Assembly: GCA_934098385.1 (NCBI GenBank)
Contig: CAKOOJ010000001.1
Location: 137,249 to 201,248 of the forward strand
Reading direction: 5' to 3'
Source: an uncultured Bacilli bacterium
GTDB taxonomy: Bacteria; Bacillota_I; Bacilli_A; RF39; UBA660
Length of the DNA stretch: 64,000 bases
Part shown: piece after piece, positions 1 to 57,573 of the stretch
Position numbering within the stretch: position 1 is the first letter of the stretch
Layout of the letters: each line of letters starts with the position of its first letter
Notes under the pieces: generated by a model
Databases searched by the model: none
Told to the model about the DNA's origin: nothing
The model's input: only the letters and a program-made list of their open reading frames with translations
Made by a program: the position numbers and the translations under genes

Positions 1-830
1 TATCTAAAAATTTATATTATGTTCATATTAATGCAGTTATATTTTCAAAAGATGTTGCATCAACAAATATGGAAGATTTATTTAATTATTTAGTTAGTAG
101 AGTTCAAATAAATTCTAATTATTATATTTTAATAAGTGATGATATAAAAGAATTATTAGATACTAAAGATAATGATAATGATATATTAGGAGAAAAAATA
201 GATAAATTAATAAATAATAGTACTAATAGTGGTACTATGGCTAATTATGATTTTATGGAAATATTAAGAAATTTCACTTCTCCAAATAAAGATATACATT
301 TAAATAAAATAAGTGTTAGAAATGATTTAACAACTATTAAAGATGGATATTATTTTAATGGCGAAAAATTAGCTGGAGAATTAGATAATAATGATTTAAA
401 ACTAATTAATTTATTTAAAAAAAGTAATAATATATATTTTACTTATAAATATAATAAAGATTATTATAATTTAAAAATAGATAGTTCAAATGTATCTTAT
501 AATATAAAAGATAAAATAAATATTAAATTAGATATAAAAGCTGATATAGATACTGCTGGAGAAAATATTAAAACTGCTAATATAAATGTTGTAGAAAAAT
601 TAAATAAACATACAGCACAAAGTATAGAACATGATTTGAATAATCTATTAAATAGGTTAAAAAAAGATAAGAGTGATATATTAGGTATAAATAATTATAT
701 TTATAAAATATATGGTAAGAAAAAGTTAGATTTTTTTAAAGATGATTTTGATATAAAAGTAAATGTAGTAATAAATAAAAAAGGTTTAGTACATGATACT
801 TTAGGAGGAAACTATCATGAAAAAGAATAA
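1..830 (+). CDS. Ger(x)C-family spore germination protein, C-terminal portion (5' end outside window)
   Basis: The frame of ORF 69..830 stays open back to base 3 (..LYYVHINAVIFSKDVAS..). It resembles the Ger(x)C C-terminal domain and overlaps the downstream GerAB-type permease gene by 14 nt. Confidence 0.4.
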   Translation, partial: SKNLYYVHINAVIFSKDVASTNMEDLFNYLVSRVQINSNYYILISDDIKELLDTKDNDNDILGEKIDKLINNSTNSGTMANYDFMEILRNFTSPNKDIHLNKISVRNDLTTIKDGYYFNGEKLAGELDNNDLKLINLFKKSNNIYFTYKYNKDYYNLKIDSSNVSYNIKDKINIKLDIKADIDTAGENIKTANINVVEKLNKHTAQSIEHDLNNLLNRLKKDKSDILGINNYIYKIYGKKKLDFFKDDFDIKVNVVINKKGLVHDTLGGNYHEKE

Positions 831-1806
831 AGAATATTTAAGTTTAACTAACTTTTTTAGTAAAGCTTTATTTCTTGGTATAGGATTATCAAAAGTATTA
901 ATTGATGCAAAAGAAAGTGCTATATTTAGTATAATACTAGGTACTATATTTGGTACTTTAATACTATTTATATTAAATAAATTATCTTTTTATAAATGTA
1001 ATGGATTAAGAAGATTTATTATGTTTATTATTATATATATATTACTTGTAATAGGTTTAACAGAATTTACTACTTTAATATCAAGTATATATTTAATAGA
1101 TATTAAAAAATATATTCTTATGTTACCTACTCTAGCTGTTATATTATATATGAATAGTAAAAATATAGAAGTACATTATAAAGTATCAAGTATGTTATAT
1201 ATTGTATCTTTTACTATATTTATTATTACATTTTTTAGTTTAGCACCTCAAATAGATTATTTAAATTTATTACCATTATTTAATGTTAGTTTTAAAAAAA
1301 TATTATTTACTTCTTTAGAATTTACTCTATTTAGTGTAGTACCTAATATATTATTAGGTGGATTAGATATTAAAAAGGATAATAAAATAATAAAAAGATA
1401 TTTAATGTCTAATTTATTATTAAGTTTAATGATATTAGTTACACAAGGTATATTAAGTGTAGAATTAGTAAGAATGTTTAAATATCCAGAATATATTGTT
1501 TTAAAAAAGATTAGTTTATTAGATTTTATTAATAATGTAGAAAATATTATATCTTTCTTATGGATATTTACTATATTTATGTATTTAAGTATATGTAGTA
1601 AAGAATTATATGATATGTCTTATGATACATTTAATAATAAATATATTTATCCTATATTTTTATTTATAAGTACTTATTTTATATCTAATTATTTTTTAGA
1701 TAATGTTAATTGTTTACTATTTTTATTTAATAATTTATGGTTAATATTATTAGTTATATTAGTAATATATATTTTAGTTAATGTGAAGAGTTTAAAAAAG
1801 AAATAA
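817..1806 (+). CDS. GerAB/GerKB-type spore germination permease-like integral membrane protein
   Basis: 329 aa with about 10 hydrophobic segments. The N-terminal stretch ..AKESAIFSIILGTIFGTLILFILNKL resembles the GerAB family. Translationally coupled to the Ger(x)C-like ORF. Confidence 0.5.
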   Translation: MKKNKEYLSLTNFFSKALFLGIGLSKVLIDAKESAIFSIILGTIFGTLILFILNKLSFYKCNGLRRFIMFIIIYILLVIGLTEFTTLISSIYLIDIKKYILMLPTLAVILYMNSKNIEVHYKVSSMLYIVSFTIFIITFFSLAPQIDYLNLLPLFNVSFKKILFTSLEFTLFSVVPNILLGGLDIKKDNKIIKRYLMSNLLLSLMILVTQGILSVELVRMFKYPEYIVLKKISLLDFINNVENIISFLWIFTIFMYLSICSKELYDMSYDTFNNKYIYPIFLFISTYFISNYFLDNVNCLLFLFNNLWLILLVILVIYILVNVKSLKKK

Positions 1807-10063: not shown

Positions 10064-10276
10064 AAAAACACGATATTCCTAAGGACGAAATACCGTGTTA
10101 CCACCTTATTTTATGTATAAAATACATCTCAAAACTTTAACGCAGTTAACGTAATATTCTACTAATTTCAAATATTCTGTTCCATTGCTACCTTCTATTA
10201 TAATTTTTATTAGTTTACACCAACCACTAACTCTCTAAAAAAAAATATATAATATACTCCTCAACTTCATAACATT
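10064..10276 (-). promoter_or_regulatory. T-box leader (tRNA-sensing riboswitch) of valS
   Basis: The minus strand carries an AGAGAG box and the conserved T-box sequence GGTGGTAACACGG (10093..10105). This is followed by the terminator ACACGGTATT-N11-AATATCGTGT plus TTTTTAT just upstream of the valS RBS. The specifier codon could not be assigned confidently (GUA and GUU candidates). Confidence 0.8.
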
Positions 10277-10282
10277 TTCTAT

Positions 10283-19237: not shown

Positions 19238-21118
19238 TCAGTTAGTAAGTACAGTGTACGGATTTGAACTAGTTCCATCTCCTCCACCTACCAGCAATTC
19301 AGCCTTTAGATTAATAACTGGACGATAATTGTGACTATTTGTGACATTAAAGTATGAATTTGTAAAATTTCCAGCACTATCAACAACAAACAAGCTTGTA
19401 GCGCCATGAAACCTTGGAGATGAAAGCATAAACTCATTTCCATTACTTAAATAGTGTTTAATAGTACTTGTATTACTCCTATATCCATAAGCTCCTGCAT
19501 ATGCCACTTCATCAGCAGATAAAAGTCCTATTGGATATTTTAAATCTCCATTTGTTTTATTACCATTTACAAGTGTTGCTACATCTACTGTAAATCTTGA
19601 ATAATCATTTGTTGCATTTTCTGCACATTTAAATGTTGGTTTTGCAGTTGTAATTTCTGTTGTACCAGAACTATATAATAATCTTTCTGTTGATGCATAA
19701 TATGTATGATTTGTTCCATAACCTAGTTGAGTTGTAACTCCACCAATACCACTTGATGCTAAAGTTTTATCATTACAAAATACCGTATCTGAAATATAAT
19801 CTATATTATTAGTATCGACTATATTAGTTTTATACCATGCATCAAGTGCTTTTTTTATTGTACTTTCTACAACATTTATATGTGTTGCATCATATGGTGT
19901 TGCTGCCCATTTACCTCCAGCAGATATACATGCAGCATTTGTTGTAATTGATGTATCTACTTCTGCTGCAGTTCCTGCATTATTTAGTTTTATACATTGA
20001 TTTGTACTACTACTAGTTTGTCCAGTCATACCATACATATACCCAACATATGCATTATCATCACTTTTAGAATTAAATACAGATACACCAGCATTACTGT
20101 CTAGAACTAGCCTAATTGTTCCATCACCATTTATTCTTACTATTCTCCATTTTTTATCTGCAAAAGATACATAATTATTTAATATAGGTCCTCTATAATA
20201 ATAACTTATTCCATAATCATCTTCTGCACTAAATATACCATCATTAGTAAAATCATTAACTTCATCATTCCAGGATGTACCATCTGCTACTTTACTCAAA
20301 TCTGGAGTTGTTTTTATTTTTGTAGATTTTGCTGTTTTATATATAACCTCTGTCCCATCTTTTACACATGTTCCAGGACATCCAGCTGCCACATTTGCTA
20401 AACAAGTAGTTCCATATCCACAATTTGTATCTTCAACAAATTGAGTTTTATCCATATCTATTCCTGTTGCTATTTTGGCGCTATCTACTATCACATCTTT
20501 TAACGGCGCATTAACATAAGGATTAAATTGACTTGGATCTACTATATTCGCTTTTGCACTAAATGTTTTGTTCATGTCTACATTTTGATTTTCATTTACA
20601 TTTTTGTATGTTACAACTAATGTATATACTTGTGCTTTATCATCTGCTATATCATTTTGTACTAATATAGTTCCAAGTGAAGGAAATGTTGTTTCATCAC
20701 TTACTCCATTACATGTTCCAGATATAGTTCCTGTTACTGTCTTATTTGTTTTATCTATGCTAAATCCCGTTTTAGAATATTGTTTACAATCTAATGTGTA
20801 TACAATATCATCTTTTCTTTCAAATTGATTTACTACATTTTCTAGTGCTACTCCATATGTAACAGTTTTATTTCCTTTATTTGTTGCTACAAATGTTTTT
20901 GTCCAACTTTTACCTGGTTCAACCTTTGTATCAGTTATTAATTCATCATTTATATCTGCATATTCTAATAAAATATTGGCTGTTACTACAGATATAGATT
21001 TGTTATTGTTATTTCCGTTTATTTTTGTTAAATAATAACCATAAGTTAATCCTATAAGTATTAGACTTACTAATACTATTCCAGTTATACTAATTATTAT
21101 TCTTTGTTTTCTAGACAT
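19238..21118 (-). CDS. large secreted/surface protein: SipW-type signal peptide, TasA/camelysin-like N-domain and a C-terminal WRIVRI..LLSxDE..RPVINL module (paralogue A)
   Basis: The start is set at MSRKQRIII by comparison with the paralogue at 33166..34839. IGLTYGYYLT signal motif, ..VEPGKSWTKTFVATNKGNKTV.. beta-sandwich-like pattern. The C-terminal module resembles the DUF6273-type WRVL/WWLRSP/VRPA family (from memory). Confidence 0.7.
   Translation of the reverse strand: MSRKQRIIISITGIVLVSLILIGLTYGYYLTKINGNNNNKSISVVTANILLEYADINDELITDTKVEPGKSWTKTFVATNKGNKTVTYGVALENVVNQFERKDDIVYTLDCKQYSKTGFSIDKTNKTVTGTISGTCNGVSDETTFPSLGTILVQNDIADDKAQVYTLVVTYKNVNENQNVDMNKTFSAKANIVDPSQFNPYVNAPLKDVIVDSAKIATGIDMDKTQFVEDTNCGYGTTCLANVAAGCPGTCVKDGTEVIYKTAKSTKIKTTPDLSKVADGTSWNDEVNDFTNDGIFSAEDDYGISYYYRGPILNNYVSFADKKWRIVRINGDGTIRLVLDSNAGVSVFNSKSDDNAYVGYMYGMTGQTSSSTNQCIKLNNAGTAAEVDTSITTNAACISAGGKWAATPYDATHINVVESTIKKALDAWYKTNIVDTNNIDYISDTVFCNDKTLASSGIGGVTTQLGYGTNHTYYASTERLLYSSGTTEITTAKPTFKCAENATNDYSRFTVDVATLVNGNKTNGDLKYPIGLLSADEVAYAGAYGYRSNTSTIKHYLSNGNEFMLSSPRFHGATSLFVVDSAGNFTNSYFNVTNSHNYRPVINLKAELLVGGGDGTSSNPYTVLTN
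20521..21118. repeat. ~600-bp near-identical direct repeat, copy A (5' module of paralogue A)
   Basis: Aligns without indels to 34242..34839 (constant offset of 13721). Includes a perfect block of about 114 bp (20618..20731). Confidence 0.85.
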
Positions 21119-33165: not shown

Positions 33166-34839
33166 TTATGATTTTACAACGTATGCATTGTTGACTGTAC
33201 CGTTTCCAGACGTTATTTGTGTACCAGTTATGAGCGTTATAACAGGTCTGAGTGCAGTATAACCGTTATCACTACATATAGTTTCATTTCCAATATAACC
33301 CACCATTCTATTTCCTGGAGGAGAAAAAACATCTTCTATATACATTGCTTTAACCTTTTCATTAGGAGTGGAATTATAATGATGATCAAGAGATAAAAGA
33401 TACCATGCATAATAAGAACCAATAGATGATGCATTATCATACAAATAATAAGTTGAATTGCTAGTTGAACCTCCTCCAGCAAATTGTGCTTCATCAACTG
33501 TTAACATTCCAATAGTATTAGTATCTATTTCTCCAACTTTTTCTTTACTTCCATCACATTTTAATAATGGACTTTTATCTACATTTATTCTTTTATAAGC
33601 ACTATAACTAAATATTGTTGATGCTTTTATTAATTCTTCTGCTGTCTGAGTTGACAAATCATAAGTTTTAGTAGAACTGTTATAAATATACGCGCTTGTT
33701 CTATCTCCTATACACCAATCTTCATTTTTAAGTAGTACTTTATCACTATCTTTTGTTATTTTTCTCTCTAACCATGCATTTAATTTTGTTCTTGCATTAT
33801 AAGTTGTATTTGCTTCACTATTTACATAATCATTTTGTATGTAGTTTTCAATTTTTTTATATCCGTAGTCAGATAACAAAATTGTTCCTTCTACACCTGA
33901 TATTCCATCTGTAGCTAAACCACTAGTTGCTGTTACATTTGTGTCACTACATGATAGTTCTGAGGCTAGTATTAGTTTTATACTTCCATCTCCTTGAATT
34001 CTGACTATTCTCCAACACATTCCTGCATAGTTTACAAAATTATCTTCTACTCCGCCTCTATAATAATAAGAAGTACCATAATCATCTTCTGTTTTAGAAA
34101 GTGTTTTTTCTGTTTCTGTAGATATTGCTTGTCCTGGAATTGTTGTTGGTGTTTCTTGATATATTGTTCTTGTTGCATCACTTGTTGCTGCTGTTTTTGC
34201 ACTATCAATTATAGCAGTAGCTAAAGTATTTGTACCATAAGGTTTAAAATTGTTTGGATCTACTATATTTGCTTTTGCACTAAATGTTTTATTCATATCT
34301 ACACTTTGATCTACATTCATTTCTTTATATGTTATTGTTAATGTATATACTTGTGCTTTATCATCTGCTATATCATTTTGTACTAATATAGTTCCAAGTG
34401 AAGGAAATGTTGTTTCATCACTTACTCCATTACATGTTCCAGATATAGTTCCAGTAACAGTCTTATTTGTTTTATCTATACTAAATCCTGTTTTAGAATA
34501 TTGTTTACAATCTAATGTATATACAATATCATCTTTTCTTTCAAATTGATTGACTACATTTTCTAGTGCTACTCCATATGTAACAGTTTTATTTCCTTTA
34601 TTTGTTGCTACAAATGTTTTTGTCCAACTTTTACCTGGTTCTACTGCACTATCTGTTATTAGTTCATCATTTACATCAGCATACTCAAGTAAAAGATTTG
34701 CAGTTACAACAGATATACTTTTACTATTAGTATTTCCTTTTATTTTTGTTAAGTAATAACCATAAGTTAATCCTATTAATATTAAACTTACTAATACTAT
34801 TCCTGTTATACTTATTATTATTCTTTGTTTACGACTCAT
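33166..34839 (-). CDS. large secreted/surface protein: SipW-type signal peptide, TasA/camelysin-like N-domain and a diverged C-terminal WRIVRI..LTVDE..RPVITL module (paralogue B)
   Basis: 557 aa, with GGAGTG RBS 7 nt upstream. The first ~197 aa are nearly identical to paralogue A. The rest is homologous but strongly diverged. Confidence 0.7.
   Translation of the reverse strand: MSRKQRIIISITGIVLVSLILIGLTYGYYLTKIKGNTNSKSISVVTANLLLEYADVNDELITDSAVEPGKSWTKTFVATNKGNKTVTYGVALENVVNQFERKDDIVYTLDCKQYSKTGFSIDKTNKTVTGTISGTCNGVSDETTFPSLGTILVQNDIADDKAQVYTLTITYKEMNVDQSVDMNKTFSAKANIVDPNNFKPYGTNTLATAIIDSAKTAATSDATRTIYQETPTTIPGQAISTETEKTLSKTEDDYGTSYYYRGGVEDNFVNYAGMCWRIVRIQGDGSIKLILASELSCSDTNVTATSGLATDGISGVEGTILLSDYGYKKIENYIQNDYVNSEANTTYNARTKLNAWLERKITKDSDKVLLKNEDWCIGDRTSAYIYNSSTKTYDLSTQTAEELIKASTIFSYSAYKRINVDKSPLLKCDGSKEKVGEIDTNTIGMLTVDEAQFAGGGSTSNSTYYLYDNASSIGSYYAWYLLSLDHHYNSTPNEKVKAMYIEDVFSPPGNRMVGYIGNETICSDNGYTALRPVITLITGTQITSGNGTVNNAYVVKS
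34242..34839. repeat. ~600-bp near-identical direct repeat, copy B
   Basis: See 20521..21118. Confidence 0.85.
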
Positions 34840-34951
34840 TCTATCACTCCTTTTTTCTCACGAAAAAACATATTTCTTCATACCCCCCCCCCCAACGTTT
34901 TTGGGGGTTGGGAAAGAGATATGTTTTTATAGTTTTTTCATGAGTCGTAAA
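34828..34951. repeat. perfect 12-bp inverted repeat (TTTACGACTCAT / ATGAGTCGTAAA) bracketing a 100-bp segment
   Basis: Arms at 34828..34839 (the first four codons of paralogue B) and 34940..34951. The enclosed 34840..34939 holds the RBS, the C11 tract and a G/C hairpin. Confidence 0.85.
34883..34893. repeat. C11 (G11 on the coding strand) homopolymer
   Basis: Eleven consecutive C residues counted, 44..54 nt upstream of the paralogue B start codon. Confidence 0.95.
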
Positions 34952-34991
34952 ATTTATAATTTATAATTTGTGGTATTTCTACCTTAATAAA

Positions 34992-35020
34992 AATATAACA
35001 TTTTTTATAATTATTGTAAA
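34992..35020 (-). promoter_or_regulatory. candidate promoter of paralogue B, outside the IR-bracketed segment
   Basis: TTTACA-17 nt-TATATT on the minus strand. Confidence 0.4.
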
Positions 35021-35051
35021 CATATTTTGTGAATTTTTGAGATTTTTTATA

Positions 35052-35081
35052 TTGACACATCAATAATTATGATGTTAAAAT
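35052..35081 (+). promoter_or_regulatory. candidate promoter of the small RNA
   Basis: TTGACA-18 nt-TAAAAT with an extended -10 TG (TGtTAAAAT). Confidence 0.5.
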
Positions 35082-35087
35082 TAATTT

Positions 35088-35157
35088 AAGTAGAGCATTA
35101 CTTTGTAATGCCTACCCATAGGGTAAGCACTCGTATTAAATTACGAGTCTTTTTATT
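35088..35157 (+). ncRNA. candidate ~70-nt small RNA with three hairpins, the last a rho-independent terminator
   Basis: GCATTAC-ttt-GTAATGC (35095..35111), TACCC-ata-GGGTA (35113..35125), and ACTCGTA-N6-TACGAGT followed by CTTTTTATTTT (35129..35157). No ORF. Confidence 0.4.
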
Positions 35158-35287
35158 TTACATTAATATATTTGTTTTTATTACAAATATAATAGTAGGT
35201 AAAATATGATATTTAATATCAAACCATAATATATTATTTATATTAGGTAGAACAAATAATTAATACGTAGTGCTTAATGGAGTTAAC

Positions 35288-35386
35288 CTATACTCCTTTT
35301 TGTAGGAGGAATAAGACTACTTTCAAAATGTATATTATTACTATACTTTTAAATATTTCTAAAATATAATAAAGTAATTTATTCAT
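35288..35386 (-). CDS. 32-aa hydrophobic peptide ORF (type I toxin-like)
   Basis: Hand translation: MNKLLYYILEIFKSIVIIYILKVVLFLLQKGV. GAGGGAG SD lies 7 nt upstream. Below the ORF-track cutoff. Confidence 0.3.
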   Translation of the reverse strand: MNKLLYYILEIFKSIVIIYILKVVLFLLQKGV

Positions 35387-53482: not shown

Positions 53483-54238
53483 TTAAGCAGCTGGAGTAAC
53501 AGTATTACCTTCAGCATCAATATAAGTTGCACCACTATCGTTAGTAGTAACACCAACAACTTTTACAGTAGCTTTTATATTAGCAGCTTGGCTATCATTT
53601 TGACTAGCAGCAGTATCAGCATATTTTAACATTAAGTAATAATATTGAGTAACATTTTTGTCAATTTCTACAACTTTAGAAATAACTTTATCTTCTCCAG
53701 TAGCTGGTAATTGACCACTAGCAACTTTTGTTCCACCAGTATAAGTATCAGCAGCGTCTACAGAATATAATTCATAAGTTAAATTAGCAGCATCTGCAGT
53801 ATTTTTAGCAGCAATACCATTAGTAATATCAATTAACTTAATAACGTAAGTTGATTTACCAGTAGATCTAGCAGTACTTGCTACATTGAAAGCAGCTGGT
53901 TTAGTAATACCGTCAGCAGCAGTTAAACCCTTAGTAGTTACATCTGCATCATCAGTTGCAACTAAAGCTTTAGTACGTAACTCACCATCAACTGTTTCAG
54001 TTCCGAAATAATGTAAACCATCACTTTCCCAACCAGGAATAACTTTTTGAGCAGTCATTGTTTTGTTTTGAGTATAATTAACTTCTAACATACCTGCTGT
54101 AACTTCTGTAGTTTTTTCATCTTGGTTTCTTGCTACTGATGCAGTGAAGTATGCATAAGTAAACCCAACTACTGATAAAGCAACTACAAACATTGCTACT
54201 ATAGCTATAGCTATCTTTCCATTGTTTTCTGATTTCAT
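53483..54238 (-). CDS. TasA/camelysin-like secreted fibre-subunit candidate with a SipW-type signal peptide (short paralogue 1)
   Basis: ..VVGFTYAYFTASV.., TAGMLEVNY..QKVIPGW. 251 aa, Ala/Thr/Gly/Val-rich, unlike the Lys/Asn/Ile-rich proteome here. AGGAGGAT RBS. Confidence 0.65.
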   Translation of the reverse strand: MKSENNGKIAIAIVAMFVVALSVVGFTYAYFTASVARNQDEKTTEVTAGMLEVNYTQNKTMTAQKVIPGWESDGLHYFGTETVDGELRTKALVATDDADVTTKGLTAADGITKPAAFNVASTARSTGKSTYVIKLIDITNGIAAKNTADAANLTYELYSVDAADTYTGGTKVASGQLPATGEDKVISKVVEIDKNVTQYYYLMLKYADTAASQNDSQAANIKATVKVVGVTTNDSGATYIDAEGNTVTPAA

Positions 54239-56100: not shown

Positions 56101-56652
56101 TCACTTTCCTAACAATTTTAATGCTTCCTTTATTTGATTTTCTAAACTTAAATCATTATCTACTTTATCTATTATCTTTTTTATATCATTACTTTTATAA
56201 CCTAAACTTTCTAAAACTTCAATAAGTTCTCTAGAGTCATATTGAAATAAGTCAGTTTGTGTAGTAAGTTTTCCTTTTAAATCTAATATAATTTGTTTAG
56301 CAACTTTATCTCCAATTTTAGGAAATCTTGTTAAATATGTAACGTTATCACTATTAATTGCATCATAAATTCCTTTAATATTACCACTTGCAAATAATGG
56401 CATAGCCATCTTAGGCCCTATTCCTTTAACATTAATAAGTTTTAAGAATAAGTTCTTCTCTTCCATATTTTTAAAACCATATAAACTATTTTCGTCTTCT
56501 TTAATATGATTATATAAATAAACTTTACATTCCTCATTTAATTTAAAACTATATGGGTTAGATACAAAAATAGAATATCCTATATTATTATTATCTAATA
56601 TTATATAATTACCATCATATCCAACGACTATACCTTTTATATAACTGTACAT
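56101..56652 (-). CDS. ruvA: Holliday junction DNA-binding protein RuvA
   Basis: [11 protein letters not shown].. start preceded by AGGAG (9 nt). HhH motifs ([18 protein letters not shown]). Lies in frame inside the 490-aa ORF 56101..57573. Confidence 0.9.
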
Positions 56653-57573
56653 TATACCAACTCCTAAAATAATAGTATCATACATTCGTTTGTATATCAA
56701 TAGTATTTTAAATTTTTTATTTTTTTTTATTATTTTATTTTCTTCAATATATTTATAATTCAAATTATTATTTGATGTTATAATGGTCTCTCCAAGATTT
56801 TTTTCTAAATCTTCTTTTGCAGTTTTAGCCGCATGTCCACCTAGTTTTGCTATTTTTTTATTTTCTTCTAGTCCAAGTTGTTTATGTTTTTTAGCTAGTT
56901 CTTCTGTTGCAGCCTCTCCTAAATCCGTAAGAATAACTTCAATTTTAGACATGTTATCTCTTAAATTTTCTTTTCGTATTCCCTTATATTCTTTATATTG
57001 TTTTGCATTCATACCAGACCATTCTTCATATATAGTATTAGTTAATATTGCATATTCCACTCCATCTTTAATACCATTATTACTCCATACTTTAGTTAAT
57101 TTTTTTCGATTAATAATAGCTTTCATTCTTGCTTCTATCCATTCTAACGAATATCCTTTTTTTATATATAAATCTATCATTTCATCAATACCTTTTGAGG
57201 GATCGAATACTTCATCGACTTTTTGTCTACCAAGCTTAGCGAGCCACAACTTAAATGGTTCTGCTTTTGGACTTGGAACCGATTCAATCAATCTAAATAT
57301 TCCTTCAGTATCCAATGTATCGGTTTGTCTTAGTTTACCGTCTTGTGCTTTAATTTTCAACTTCCGACAATTTGTCGGAAGTTCACTTCCTTCGTCTTTA
57401 GCTAATCGTCTTTTTAATGTTGTCCAATAATCACTCGAATCTTTAGGTTCAATTAATGCATTTATAACATCAACCACACTAAAGTAATATTCTTCTTTGT
57501 CCTTATCCCATATACTTCTGATCTCTTTGTTTTCGAAAAGATTTGAAATTGTTTTTATCTTACTATCATTCAT
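56653..57573 (-). CDS. Bro-N domain / DinD-like (DNA-damage-inducible protein D-like) protein with no stop codon of its own
   Basis: FENKEIRSIWDKDKEEYYFSVVDV.., ..IESVPSPKAEPFKLWLAKLG.., ..KENLRDNMSKIEVILTDLGEAAT.. match a widespread ~280-aa Bro-N family (from memory). AGGAGGG RBS. The frame continues uninterrupted into ruvA. Confidence 0.65.

Follow-up and report, generated by a model that had tools for sequence, protein, structure and literature searches.

In a 64,000-nucleotide (nt) stretch of DNA from an uncultured Bacilli bacterium, referred to here as the window, we analyzed the region upstream of gene B, a TasA-like surface-protein gene whose first four codons form one arm of a perfect 12-bp inverted repeat. 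The corresponding helix, P1, and a second, partly competing helix, P1', were conserved in related leaders, co-varied, and carried wobble signatures that are specific to RNA. With moderate confidence, we propose that the repeat forms helix P1 within a structured, conserved RNA in the 5' leader, and that this RNA regulates some members of a multi-copy family of TasA-like surface-protein genes in uncultured gut Bacilli. In the model developed below, P1 is probably a translation brake on gene B. The original prediction had offered two readings of the repeat, and the one that fared well was the 12-bp RNA helix that buries the start codon; conserved pairing, G.U wobbles, an upstream promoter with a small hairpin (P0), and folding probabilities all supported it.

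The inverted repeat and the layout of the leader

The repeat consists of TTTACGACTCAT at positions 34828-34839 and ATGAGTCGTAAA at positions 34940-34951, which are 100% complementary and exactly 100 nt apart. As described originally, TTTACGACTCAT is the reverse complement of ATG AGT CGT AAA, codons 1 to 4 of the open reading frame (ORF) at 33166..34839 on the minus strand. The exact 12-mer had no further copy in the 64 kb; when up to one mismatch was allowed, three matches were seen and 0.36 were expected, and two of the three were the arms themselves. The helix ends at 12 bp, and the sequence offers no extension on either side. Several other parts of the earlier description also held. The Shine-Dalgarno (SD) sequence AAGGAGUG at 34845-34852 and a G/C hairpin are inside the bracketed segment, the promoter TTTACA-17-TATATT (35020..34992; 10/12, with a TG) is outside it, and a comparison of gene starts showed that paralogue A begins with ATG TCT AGA AAA and lacks the repeat. 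The homopolymer that had been described as a C11/G11 tract is present, but it is a single run (C11 on the plus strand, which is G11 on the gene strand, at 34883-34893) and not two tracts. The helix P1', which had been overlooked, is formed by CTCACGAAAAAAC at 34857-34869 and GTTTTTTCATGAG at 34932-34944.

In the direction of the gene, the promoter TTTACA-17-TATATT is followed by GGUAGAAAUACC, an AU-rich spacer, the arm UUUACGACUCAU, and GAAAAAAC. Next come a long hairpin whose 3' strand opens with G11, and then UUUUUUCGUGAG, AAAAAAGGAGUGAUAGA, and AUGAGUCGUAAA. The features of the leader and its gene are as follows.

34992..35020, minus strand: sigma-A-type promoter with the -35 element TTTACA at 35020-35015, a 17-nt spacer with TG, and the -10 element TATATT at 34997-34992, from which the transcription start is predicted
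34972..34983, minus strand: P0, a small 5'-terminal hairpin (GGUA-GAAA-UACC), the predicted first structure of the transcript
34940..34951, minus strand: anti-start arm UUUACGACUCAU, the 5' strand of helix P1, from the repeat search and the comparison of relatives
34932..34944, minus strand: 5' strand of P1', CUCAUGAAAAAAC, which overlaps the arm in CUCAU (34940-34944); CAU is contested between P1 and P1'
34864..34928, minus strand: P2, a long hairpin with a pyrimidine-rich 5' strand, the loop AAAAACGUU, and a 3' strand opening with G11, from repeats and folding
34883..34893, minus strand: G11 homopolymer (C11 on the plus strand) in the 3' strand of P2, the sole run of eight or more G nucleotides (G8+) in the 64 kb
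34857..34869, minus strand: 3' strand of P1', GUUUUUUCGUGAG, whose U6 tract gives an intrinsic-terminator shape and whose GUG pairs with CAU through a U.G wobble
34845..34852, minus strand: SD sequence AAGGAGUG, predicted to be mostly unpaired (unpaired probability ~0.6)
34828..34839, minus strand: AUG AGU CGU AAA, the start codon and codons 2 to 4, 3' strand of P1, from sequence, comparison, and folding
33166..34839, minus strand: gene B, whose 557-amino-acid (aa) product, secreted or on the surface, belongs to a multi-copy family and carries an N-terminal signal of the SipW/TasA type (..GLTYGYYLT..)

Arm and start codons change together in related leaders

We gathered 138 related loci from genomes, metagenomes, and ENA assemblies. 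The relatives were gut metagenome-assembled genomes (MAGs) from Hadza and UMGS assemblies, with the label uncultured Bacilli or Tenericutes. Complementarity between an upstream arm and the gene start was found again in about 20 related leaders, which came from metagenomes and from other MAGs of gut Bacilli, and the two sides co-varied; given this recurrence and co-variation, we judged the repeat to be far beyond chance. The arm-bearing leaders were winB, L002, L006, L015, L018, L020, L036, L038, L041, L042, L051, L055, L063, L081, L117, L120-122, and L138, and in relatives the arm was located 112 to 237 nt upstream of the ATG. In every copy of the G-run hairpin with enough upstream sequence, the arm matched that gene's own AUG and codons 2 to 4, save for the armless leaders of one MAG. 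Paralogues without the leader showed complementarity at 8 to 10 of 12 positions, which is background.

Three types of arm and codons were found, namely, UUUACGACUCAU with AUGAGUCGUAAA, UUUACGAUUCAU with AUGAAUCGUAAR, and UUUUCUAUUCAU with AUGAAUAGRAAA. The joint changes were AGU/ACU versus AAU/AUU and CGU/ACG versus AGA/UCU (codon/arm); thus, the arm mirrored both the choice between the synonymous Arg codons CGU and AGA and the choice between a Ser and an Asn codon. Of the Arg codons in the window, 11% are CGU and 82% are AGA, and yet codon 3 is CGU in most arm-bearing genes, a preference that would be compatible with selection for a G-C-containing helix. Differing arms matched their own genes even within one genome (CAKOOU; L006 versus L018 and L020).

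As an anchored alignment of 13 distinct leaders indicated, P1 was paired in 98.7% of cells, and three columns were altered on both sides (A-U/U-A, G-C/U-A, and U-A/C-G). Slid pairings, which served as controls, were paired in 31-49% of cells, and the observed value was reached by 0 of 500 shuffles. When we considered leaders that keep the G-rich hairpin, all 10 of the 10 non-Watson-Crick cells in P1 were G.U on the mRNA strand, and these cells represented six columns and at least eight events. The share of G.U expected per event under neutral substitution in a DNA repeat is 1/6 to 1/2. True mismatches in P1 were confined to L112, a decayed copy without the G-run. Because a G.U cell is A.C on the opposite strand and a mismatch in DNA, this signature fits a sense-strand RNA and not duplex DNA or an antisense RNA. 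The wobble bias is a stronger argument than the double-sided compensations.

Four of the related loci had altered forms of the leader or its gene. A fossil arm and a G7 run were located upstream of a different promoter in L116 (~940-1000), and an upstream ORF replaced the arm, the 5' strand, and the G-run in L043 (1-375), where the junction was within the 3' strand of the hairpin. L081 (1492-1964) kept the leader, followed by a gene with an internal deletion, and an RNase III gene adjoined it. In the MAG contig L005 (1-93), the sequence 5' of the hairpin loop was unrelated to the usual 5' strand and arm, and this is probably a chimeric contig end at the hairpin.

The hairpin base, the long hairpin, and the G-run

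P1' (CAUR-A6 with U6-YGUG) was paired in 99.3% of cells; three of its columns co-varied, and the U.G between CAU and GUG was invariant. This helix is the base of the long hairpin, and it competes with P1 for the three bases CAU. RNAalifold recovered only the top of the hairpin from a plain MAFFT alignment of the core, and the lower stem and P1' were tested on the anchored alignment. Higher in the hairpin, the G-run pairs with the pyrimidine strand, and where C and U interchange on that strand, G-C or G.U pairing is preserved. All copies had a terminator-shaped stem, in which a hairpin of -26 to -36 kcal/mol was followed by U6-U9 and then YGUG; internal loops in P2 hide it from a simple terminator scan. 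In the leader, we found no alternative antiterminator structure overlapping the terminator's 5' strand. Rfam 15 scans of the window leader and one long-form leader (described below) gave only sub-threshold matches at chance level.

The G-run, which has no counterpart of eight or more G nucleotides elsewhere in the window, was G9, G10, G11, G12, or G14 in relatives and G9-G12 in most copies. At one locus, where it is ~70 nt upstream of the gene start, it was G11 in two samples (L120 and L121) and G14 in a different one (L122), and it was broken by a single A or T in L063 and L081. The G-run is therefore both variable and maintained. Three candidate roles for the region were considered and rejected. 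The length of the G-run did not act as a folding switch in predicted folds, as P1 was insensitive to lengths of G6-G16. A role as a promoter spacer (TTG...G11...TATRAA) would give a spacer of only ~11 nt, and a mini-ORF after the G-run that might encode a leader peptide (AUG AAG AAA UAU GUU UUU UCG UGA) was not conserved in relatives.

Predicted folding of the leader

The window leader RNA was predicted to fold with an energy of -51.3 kcal/mol (z = -6.6), and P1 was part of the minimum-free-energy structure. When 16 full leaders were folded with the partition function, the probability of P1 was 0.9 or higher in 15 of them. In these 16 leaders, the unpaired probability of the AUG was 0.01-0.08 with the arm versus 0.16-1.0 when the arm was removed, and the SD sequence was largely open. 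When the core from the arm to the GUG was folded alone, the first nine bases of the arm were free and CAU was held in P1'.

Promoter and predicted transcription of the arm

All of the arm-bearing relatives had a promoter with a -35 element, a 17-nt spacer, and a TGn -10 element, with a small hairpin a short, fixed distance downstream and the arm after that. In relatives, P0 was GGUA-NNNN-UACC or a different folding hairpin, AGGAUA...UAUCUU. Because this conserved extended -10 promoter and 5' hairpin precede the arm, both arms would be expected on one transcript, and the arm should be located within the 5' untranslated region (UTR), downstream of the predicted transcription start. The leaders had short and long forms. 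In the short forms (window, L055, L063, L081, and L120), only ~20 nt separate the U-tract from the ATG. The long forms have an extra AU-rich hairpin of ~100 nt (GACAAAU...AUUUGUC) between the U-tract and the SD sequence, and this insert contains TATAAT-like words.

Divergent from the gene B promoter is a candidate small RNA gene (35052-35158, plus strand), which has the putative promoter TTGACA-18-TAAAAT (11/12, with TG), a hairpin made of GUAGAGCAUUAC, UUU, and GUAAUGCCUAC, a linker, and a terminator, ACUCGUAUUAAAUUACGAGU, followed by U5. The same module is found upstream of many paralogues with either promoter type (L002, L036, L038, L117, L119, L120-122, and L138); the promoter and the first hairpin are conserved in these copies, and the terminator stem differs in sequence yet folds. 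We considered this candidate small RNA as an opener of the start-codon helix and rejected it in that role, since its duplex energies with the leader were no better than those of shuffled sequences. The spacer between a small ORF and the gene B promoter (35040-35300, minus strand) was also predicted to be highly structured (-65.8 kcal/mol; z = -7.6 versus shuffles), with a long-range stem between AAGCACUACGUAUUAAUUA and UAAUUUAAUACGAGUGCUU. The small ORF itself (35288-35386, minus strand) is located just downstream of dnaJ and consists of 32 codons that specify the hydrophobic sequence MNKLLYYILEIFKSIVIIYILKVVLFLLQKGV. It has a strong SD sequence, GAGGGAG, and is conserved in L002 save for one amino-acid change. 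Its product could be a peptide resembling type I toxins or else a small membrane protein.

Proposed mechanism and alternative explanations

From the arrangement and predicted folding of the leader, we infer the following course of events. Transcription would begin at the conserved promoter ~145 nt upstream of the ATG, and P0 would fold first, with the 12-nt anti-start arm then single-stranded. The pyrimidine/G-run hairpin P2 would form next, its base P1' would take the last three bases of the arm, and the U-tract would give the structure its terminator shape, so that some polymerases may stop there. In RNA that is read through, the nine free bases of the arm would nucleate on codons 2 to 4, displace the GUG decoy from CAU, and lock the AUG. 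The SD sequence would stay accessible, whereas the 12-bp helix would hold the start codon together with the first 9 coding nucleotides, and initiation would be throttled. This brake may be combined with partial termination. The clamp could be relieved by ribosomes that load before P1 forms, by RNase III cutting of the hairpin, or by another factor.

Several points weigh against this proposal. A strong conserved promoter that feeds a constitutive clamp is paradoxical unless some opener acts. If the insert of the long forms contains an internal promoter, it would yield some mRNAs without the arm. L138 and L120, which are located at one locus, carry different arm/codon types, and the leader and the 5' coding sequence move between loci as a module; because the two travel together, independent double-sided compensations are few (at least two). 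A change in G-run length from G6 to G16 shifts the stability of the hairpin gradually and leaves the P1 probability at 0.90-0.96, so the proposal does not account for the conservation of the G-run. Finally, L017, L029, L031, and L111, which are from another MAG, keep the G-run hairpin but have no arm, and the hairpin must therefore have a role of its own.

The other reading in the original prediction was an invertible DNA switch, in which a site-specific recombinase acting at the 12-bp arms would invert the 100-bp segment enclosed by them. The SD sequence lies inside the segment, so a flip would remove it and put SD-less sequence in its place. The idea was a fair one. The geometry is like that of the leader-embedded invertons of Clostridioides difficile flgB and cwpV (PMC5914908), and it also fits the 12-bp inverted repeats of Mycoplasma penetrans mpl, which differ from gene to gene (PMC3047005); given the latter example, differences between arms within one genome are by themselves no argument against an inverton. 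Several contigs also break inside the element or at its edge (L001, L021, and L118), but such breaks are accounted for by the fact that the leader and the 5' coding sequence form a repeat of more than 141 nt that is common to loci. L117 bears the window's leader in a different chromosomal context. The orientation of the segment was identical in all of the ~29 copies (20 complete and ~9 partial), which came from many samples, loci, and species, and a scan of 51 gene starts and all 138 loci for the inverted signature or C-runs found no flipped copy. In 430 kb of sequence from related loci, 26 G8+ runs were on the gene strand and 0 were on the other strand. In addition, 10 of the 20 complete copies had a DNA mismatch in the arm (11/12), including at the central positions 4, 5, 7, and 8, and each was G.U on the sense RNA. 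The spacing of the arms changes from 100 to 225 bp through the structured insert with the arm still tracking the codons, and P1' and the G.Y helix carry invariant wobbles that would be meaningless in DNA. A Pfam scan of the 20 unassigned ORFs in the window found no recombinase family, in agreement with what had been noted originally. Thus, the invertible switch was not supported by these assembled copies, and we consider it very improbable, although rare inversion would be visible only in reads. We have just as little belief in a DNA-level quasi-palindrome without RNA function, whether as a cruciform or protein-binding site or as a relic whose symmetry template-switch repair maintains. The region from the arm to the ATG is indeed a large imperfect palindrome, and template switching can make arms co-vary without selection. 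However, the wobble bias is strand specific, with every imperfection being G.U on the gene strand; inserts of 19-127 nt are asymmetric, occurring on one side only; and the promoter and the SD sequence are conserved where an mRNA leader would have them.

Two further explanations accept a function in RNA, and we regard each as unlikely. One is that the leader yields a small RNA that acts in trans: most transcripts would stop at the U-tract, and the resulting ~125-nt RNA (5' hairpin, single-stranded seed UUUACGAYU, and terminator) would pair with the mRNA starts of the family, among them those of paralogues with identical first codons, and cause cross-repression. Its layout would be classic for a small RNA, as the core folds with the first 9 nt of the arm free and the rest is a hairpin plus U6. 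At least six leader-bearing paralogues in one MAG (OIYG01/URLV01) have near-identical arms and start codons, and the long forms may own a promoter downstream of the hairpin. In the short forms, however, the gene is reached only by read-through across the ~20 nt that follow the U-tract, the arm is in cis on every mRNA, and intramolecular pairing should therefore win over pairing in trans. The match between the CAKOOU arms and their own genes likewise points to cis specificity. The other explanation gives the leader a positive role as a processing or stability element. P1, P1', and P2 would form a quasi-continuous helix of ~45 bp that is cut by RNase III (or that blocks RNase J), removal of the arm would activate or stabilize the mRNA, and the G-run would tune the process. 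The combination of a long 5'-UTR hairpin, a G-rich 3' strand, a repeat-like pyrimidine strand, and a surface-protein gene is like that of hmw (PMC12721329), the G-run varies in length among strains (G9-G14), and a related MAG (L081) has a gene for RNase III. However, neither P1 nor the predicted fold is sensitive to G-run lengths between 6 and 16, and a processing role would extend the start-codon clamp rather than replace it. We also entertain, as quite unlikely, a two-lock riboregulatory module that chooses which copy of the surface protein is made. In such a module, the hypermutable G-run would be the first lock, setting read-through of the terminator, and the anti-start arm would be the second, acting in cis and, on abundant terminated leader RNAs, silencing in trans those paralogues that have the same first four codons. 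If true, this would amount to RNA-based mutual exclusion among paralogues without DNA inversion, with phase variation at the level of an RNA hairpin.

Gene B, its family, and other elements in the window

The window has a G+C content of ~25%, and its genes, including alaS, cmk, whiA, yvcK, dnaJ, pepF, dnaK, grpE, and hrcA, are mostly on the minus strand; gene B is located between dnaJ and yvcK. The gene B family had more than 1000 database matches and at least 10 paralogues per genome. A profile search with the gene B protein yielded no significant Pfam or NCBIfam match. Across the family, the N-terminal ~200 residues are conserved, including the TasA/SipW-type signal (..GLTY[AG]Y[FY]LT..), and the C-terminal parts are variable. 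The N-terminal signal of the gene B protein is similar to the GTYAYF type. When an AlphaFold (AF2) model of the protein (predicted local distance difference test [pLDDT] score of 78) was compared to the PDB, the top match was the TasA fibre 8aur_A, and this match was weak (E = 1e-3; template-modeling [TM] score of 0.28).

Paralogue A (19250..21118) has 5' coding DNA that is near-identical to that of gene B (33166-34839) and a different, simple promoter. The near-identical stretch common to the two genes is ~300 nt, and ~115 nt of it is 100% identical. In contigs from other samples (L003 and L004), the body of B and yvcK were joined to promoters and 5' ends of the A type (nifU context) or of a third type (truA/pseudopilin context). 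These joins reflect either recombination that swaps expression sites or assembly chimeras, and the two look alike because the crossover falls in the stretch in which A and B are identical.

The regions 53483-54238 (minus strand), 62002-62712 (minus strand), and 69-1806 (plus strand) include GerAC-like and spore-permease genes and a pair of small proteins sharing the GxTYAYF-type signal; one of the pair matched Peptidase_M73/camelysin weakly. A Spo0A gene is located on the related contig L119. Together, the GxTYAYF proteins, the GerAC-like and spore-permease genes, and Spo0A on L119 point to a putatively spore-forming lineage, despite the Tenericutes label of some MAGs. Rfam scans of the window also identified an OLE RNA (48480-48969, minus strand; 222 bits) that adjoins a small membrane-protein ORF (47941-48459) and a T-box leader (10078-10279, minus strand) upstream of valS. 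In addition, the gene at 56101-57573 (minus strand) encodes a 490-aa RuvA (RuvA_N, HHH_5, and RuvA_C) with an N-terminal Bro-N fusion, which is an unusual architecture.

Comparison with known systems

The description that fits the element best is a structured leader RNA, not described before, in which a start-codon clamp surrounds a terminator-like hairpin with a G-run. The kind of control that we propose, occlusion of the initiation region in cis, is already known. In the maturation gene of phage MS2, an upstream complementary sequence occludes the translation initiation region. In the Escherichia coli rpoS leader, the initiation region is paired with a 5'-UTR segment upstream of it on the same mRNA, and translation is blocked until the pairing is opened (PMC2831331). 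Type I toxin mRNAs such as hok and aapA1 also rely on cis pairing, which keeps the initiation region inert until it is opened, processed, or outrun (PMC8167048). Here, too, an upstream segment pairs with its own initiation region. Unlike in those leaders, however, the partner is the AUG with codons 2 to 4 and not the SD sequence, which stays open. Furthermore, the hairpin inside the helix is terminator shaped and contains a homopolymeric run of G, CAU would toggle between a GUG decoy and the AUG, and the device is present in many copies per genome, before paralogous surface-protein genes. Should the model hold, the leader would be a cis-regulatory RNA motif not described before and outside Rfam, controlling a multi-copy, fast-recombining family of TasA-like surface proteins in uncultured gut Bacilli with small genomes. 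It would also be a compact natural design, with an anti-start arm, a decoy GUG, and a homopolymer-bearing hairpin, that is testable in reporters.

Attenuators with intrinsic terminators in 5' leaders, such as those controlled by LicT/SacY (PMC3575810), have the same order of promoter, small 5' hairpin, stable hairpin with a U-tract, SD sequence, and gene. They differ from the leader described here, in which no antiterminator overlapping the 5' strand of the terminator, no partner (ligand, tRNA, or protein), and no Rfam match were found. The likeness to invertons of surface-protein genes is also considerable in outline. The flgB element of C. difficile is 154 bp long with 21-bp inverted repeats, cwpV has an orientation-dependent terminator (PMC5914908), and the promoter inversions of M. 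penetrans mpl are driven by the 12-bp inverted repeats mentioned above (PMC3047005). As in these systems, a segment of 100-200 bp located between the promoter region and a variable-surface-protein ORF is flanked by a short inverted repeat, the leader has a terminator-type hairpin, and the gene family is multi-copy. In contrast to these systems, neither flipped copies nor a recombinase were found in our scans, the arm carries RNA-type wobbles, and the promoter is outside the segment. If the model holds, it would follow that a short perfect inverted repeat flanking the ribosome-binding site of a variable-surface-protein gene, an inverton-like signature, can instead reflect an RNA clamp, a point that is relevant to inverton-calling pipelines.

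For a repeat-bearing 5'-UTR hairpin of an adhesin gene, the closest published parallel is Haemophilus influenzae hmw1A, in which RNase III cleavage of a 5'-UTR repeat hairpin raises expression (PMC12721329). Both would be post-transcriptional control elements, and in both the length of the repeat varies between strains. The leader described here differs in having a G homopolymer on the 3' arm of the hairpin, versus heptamers on the 5' arm, and in having an extra start-codon helix; its host is unrelated and of the low-GC Gram-positive type. If the model holds, the G-run would be a further case in which simple-sequence repeats are tied to 5'-UTR structure, as was found recently for H. influenzae hmw.

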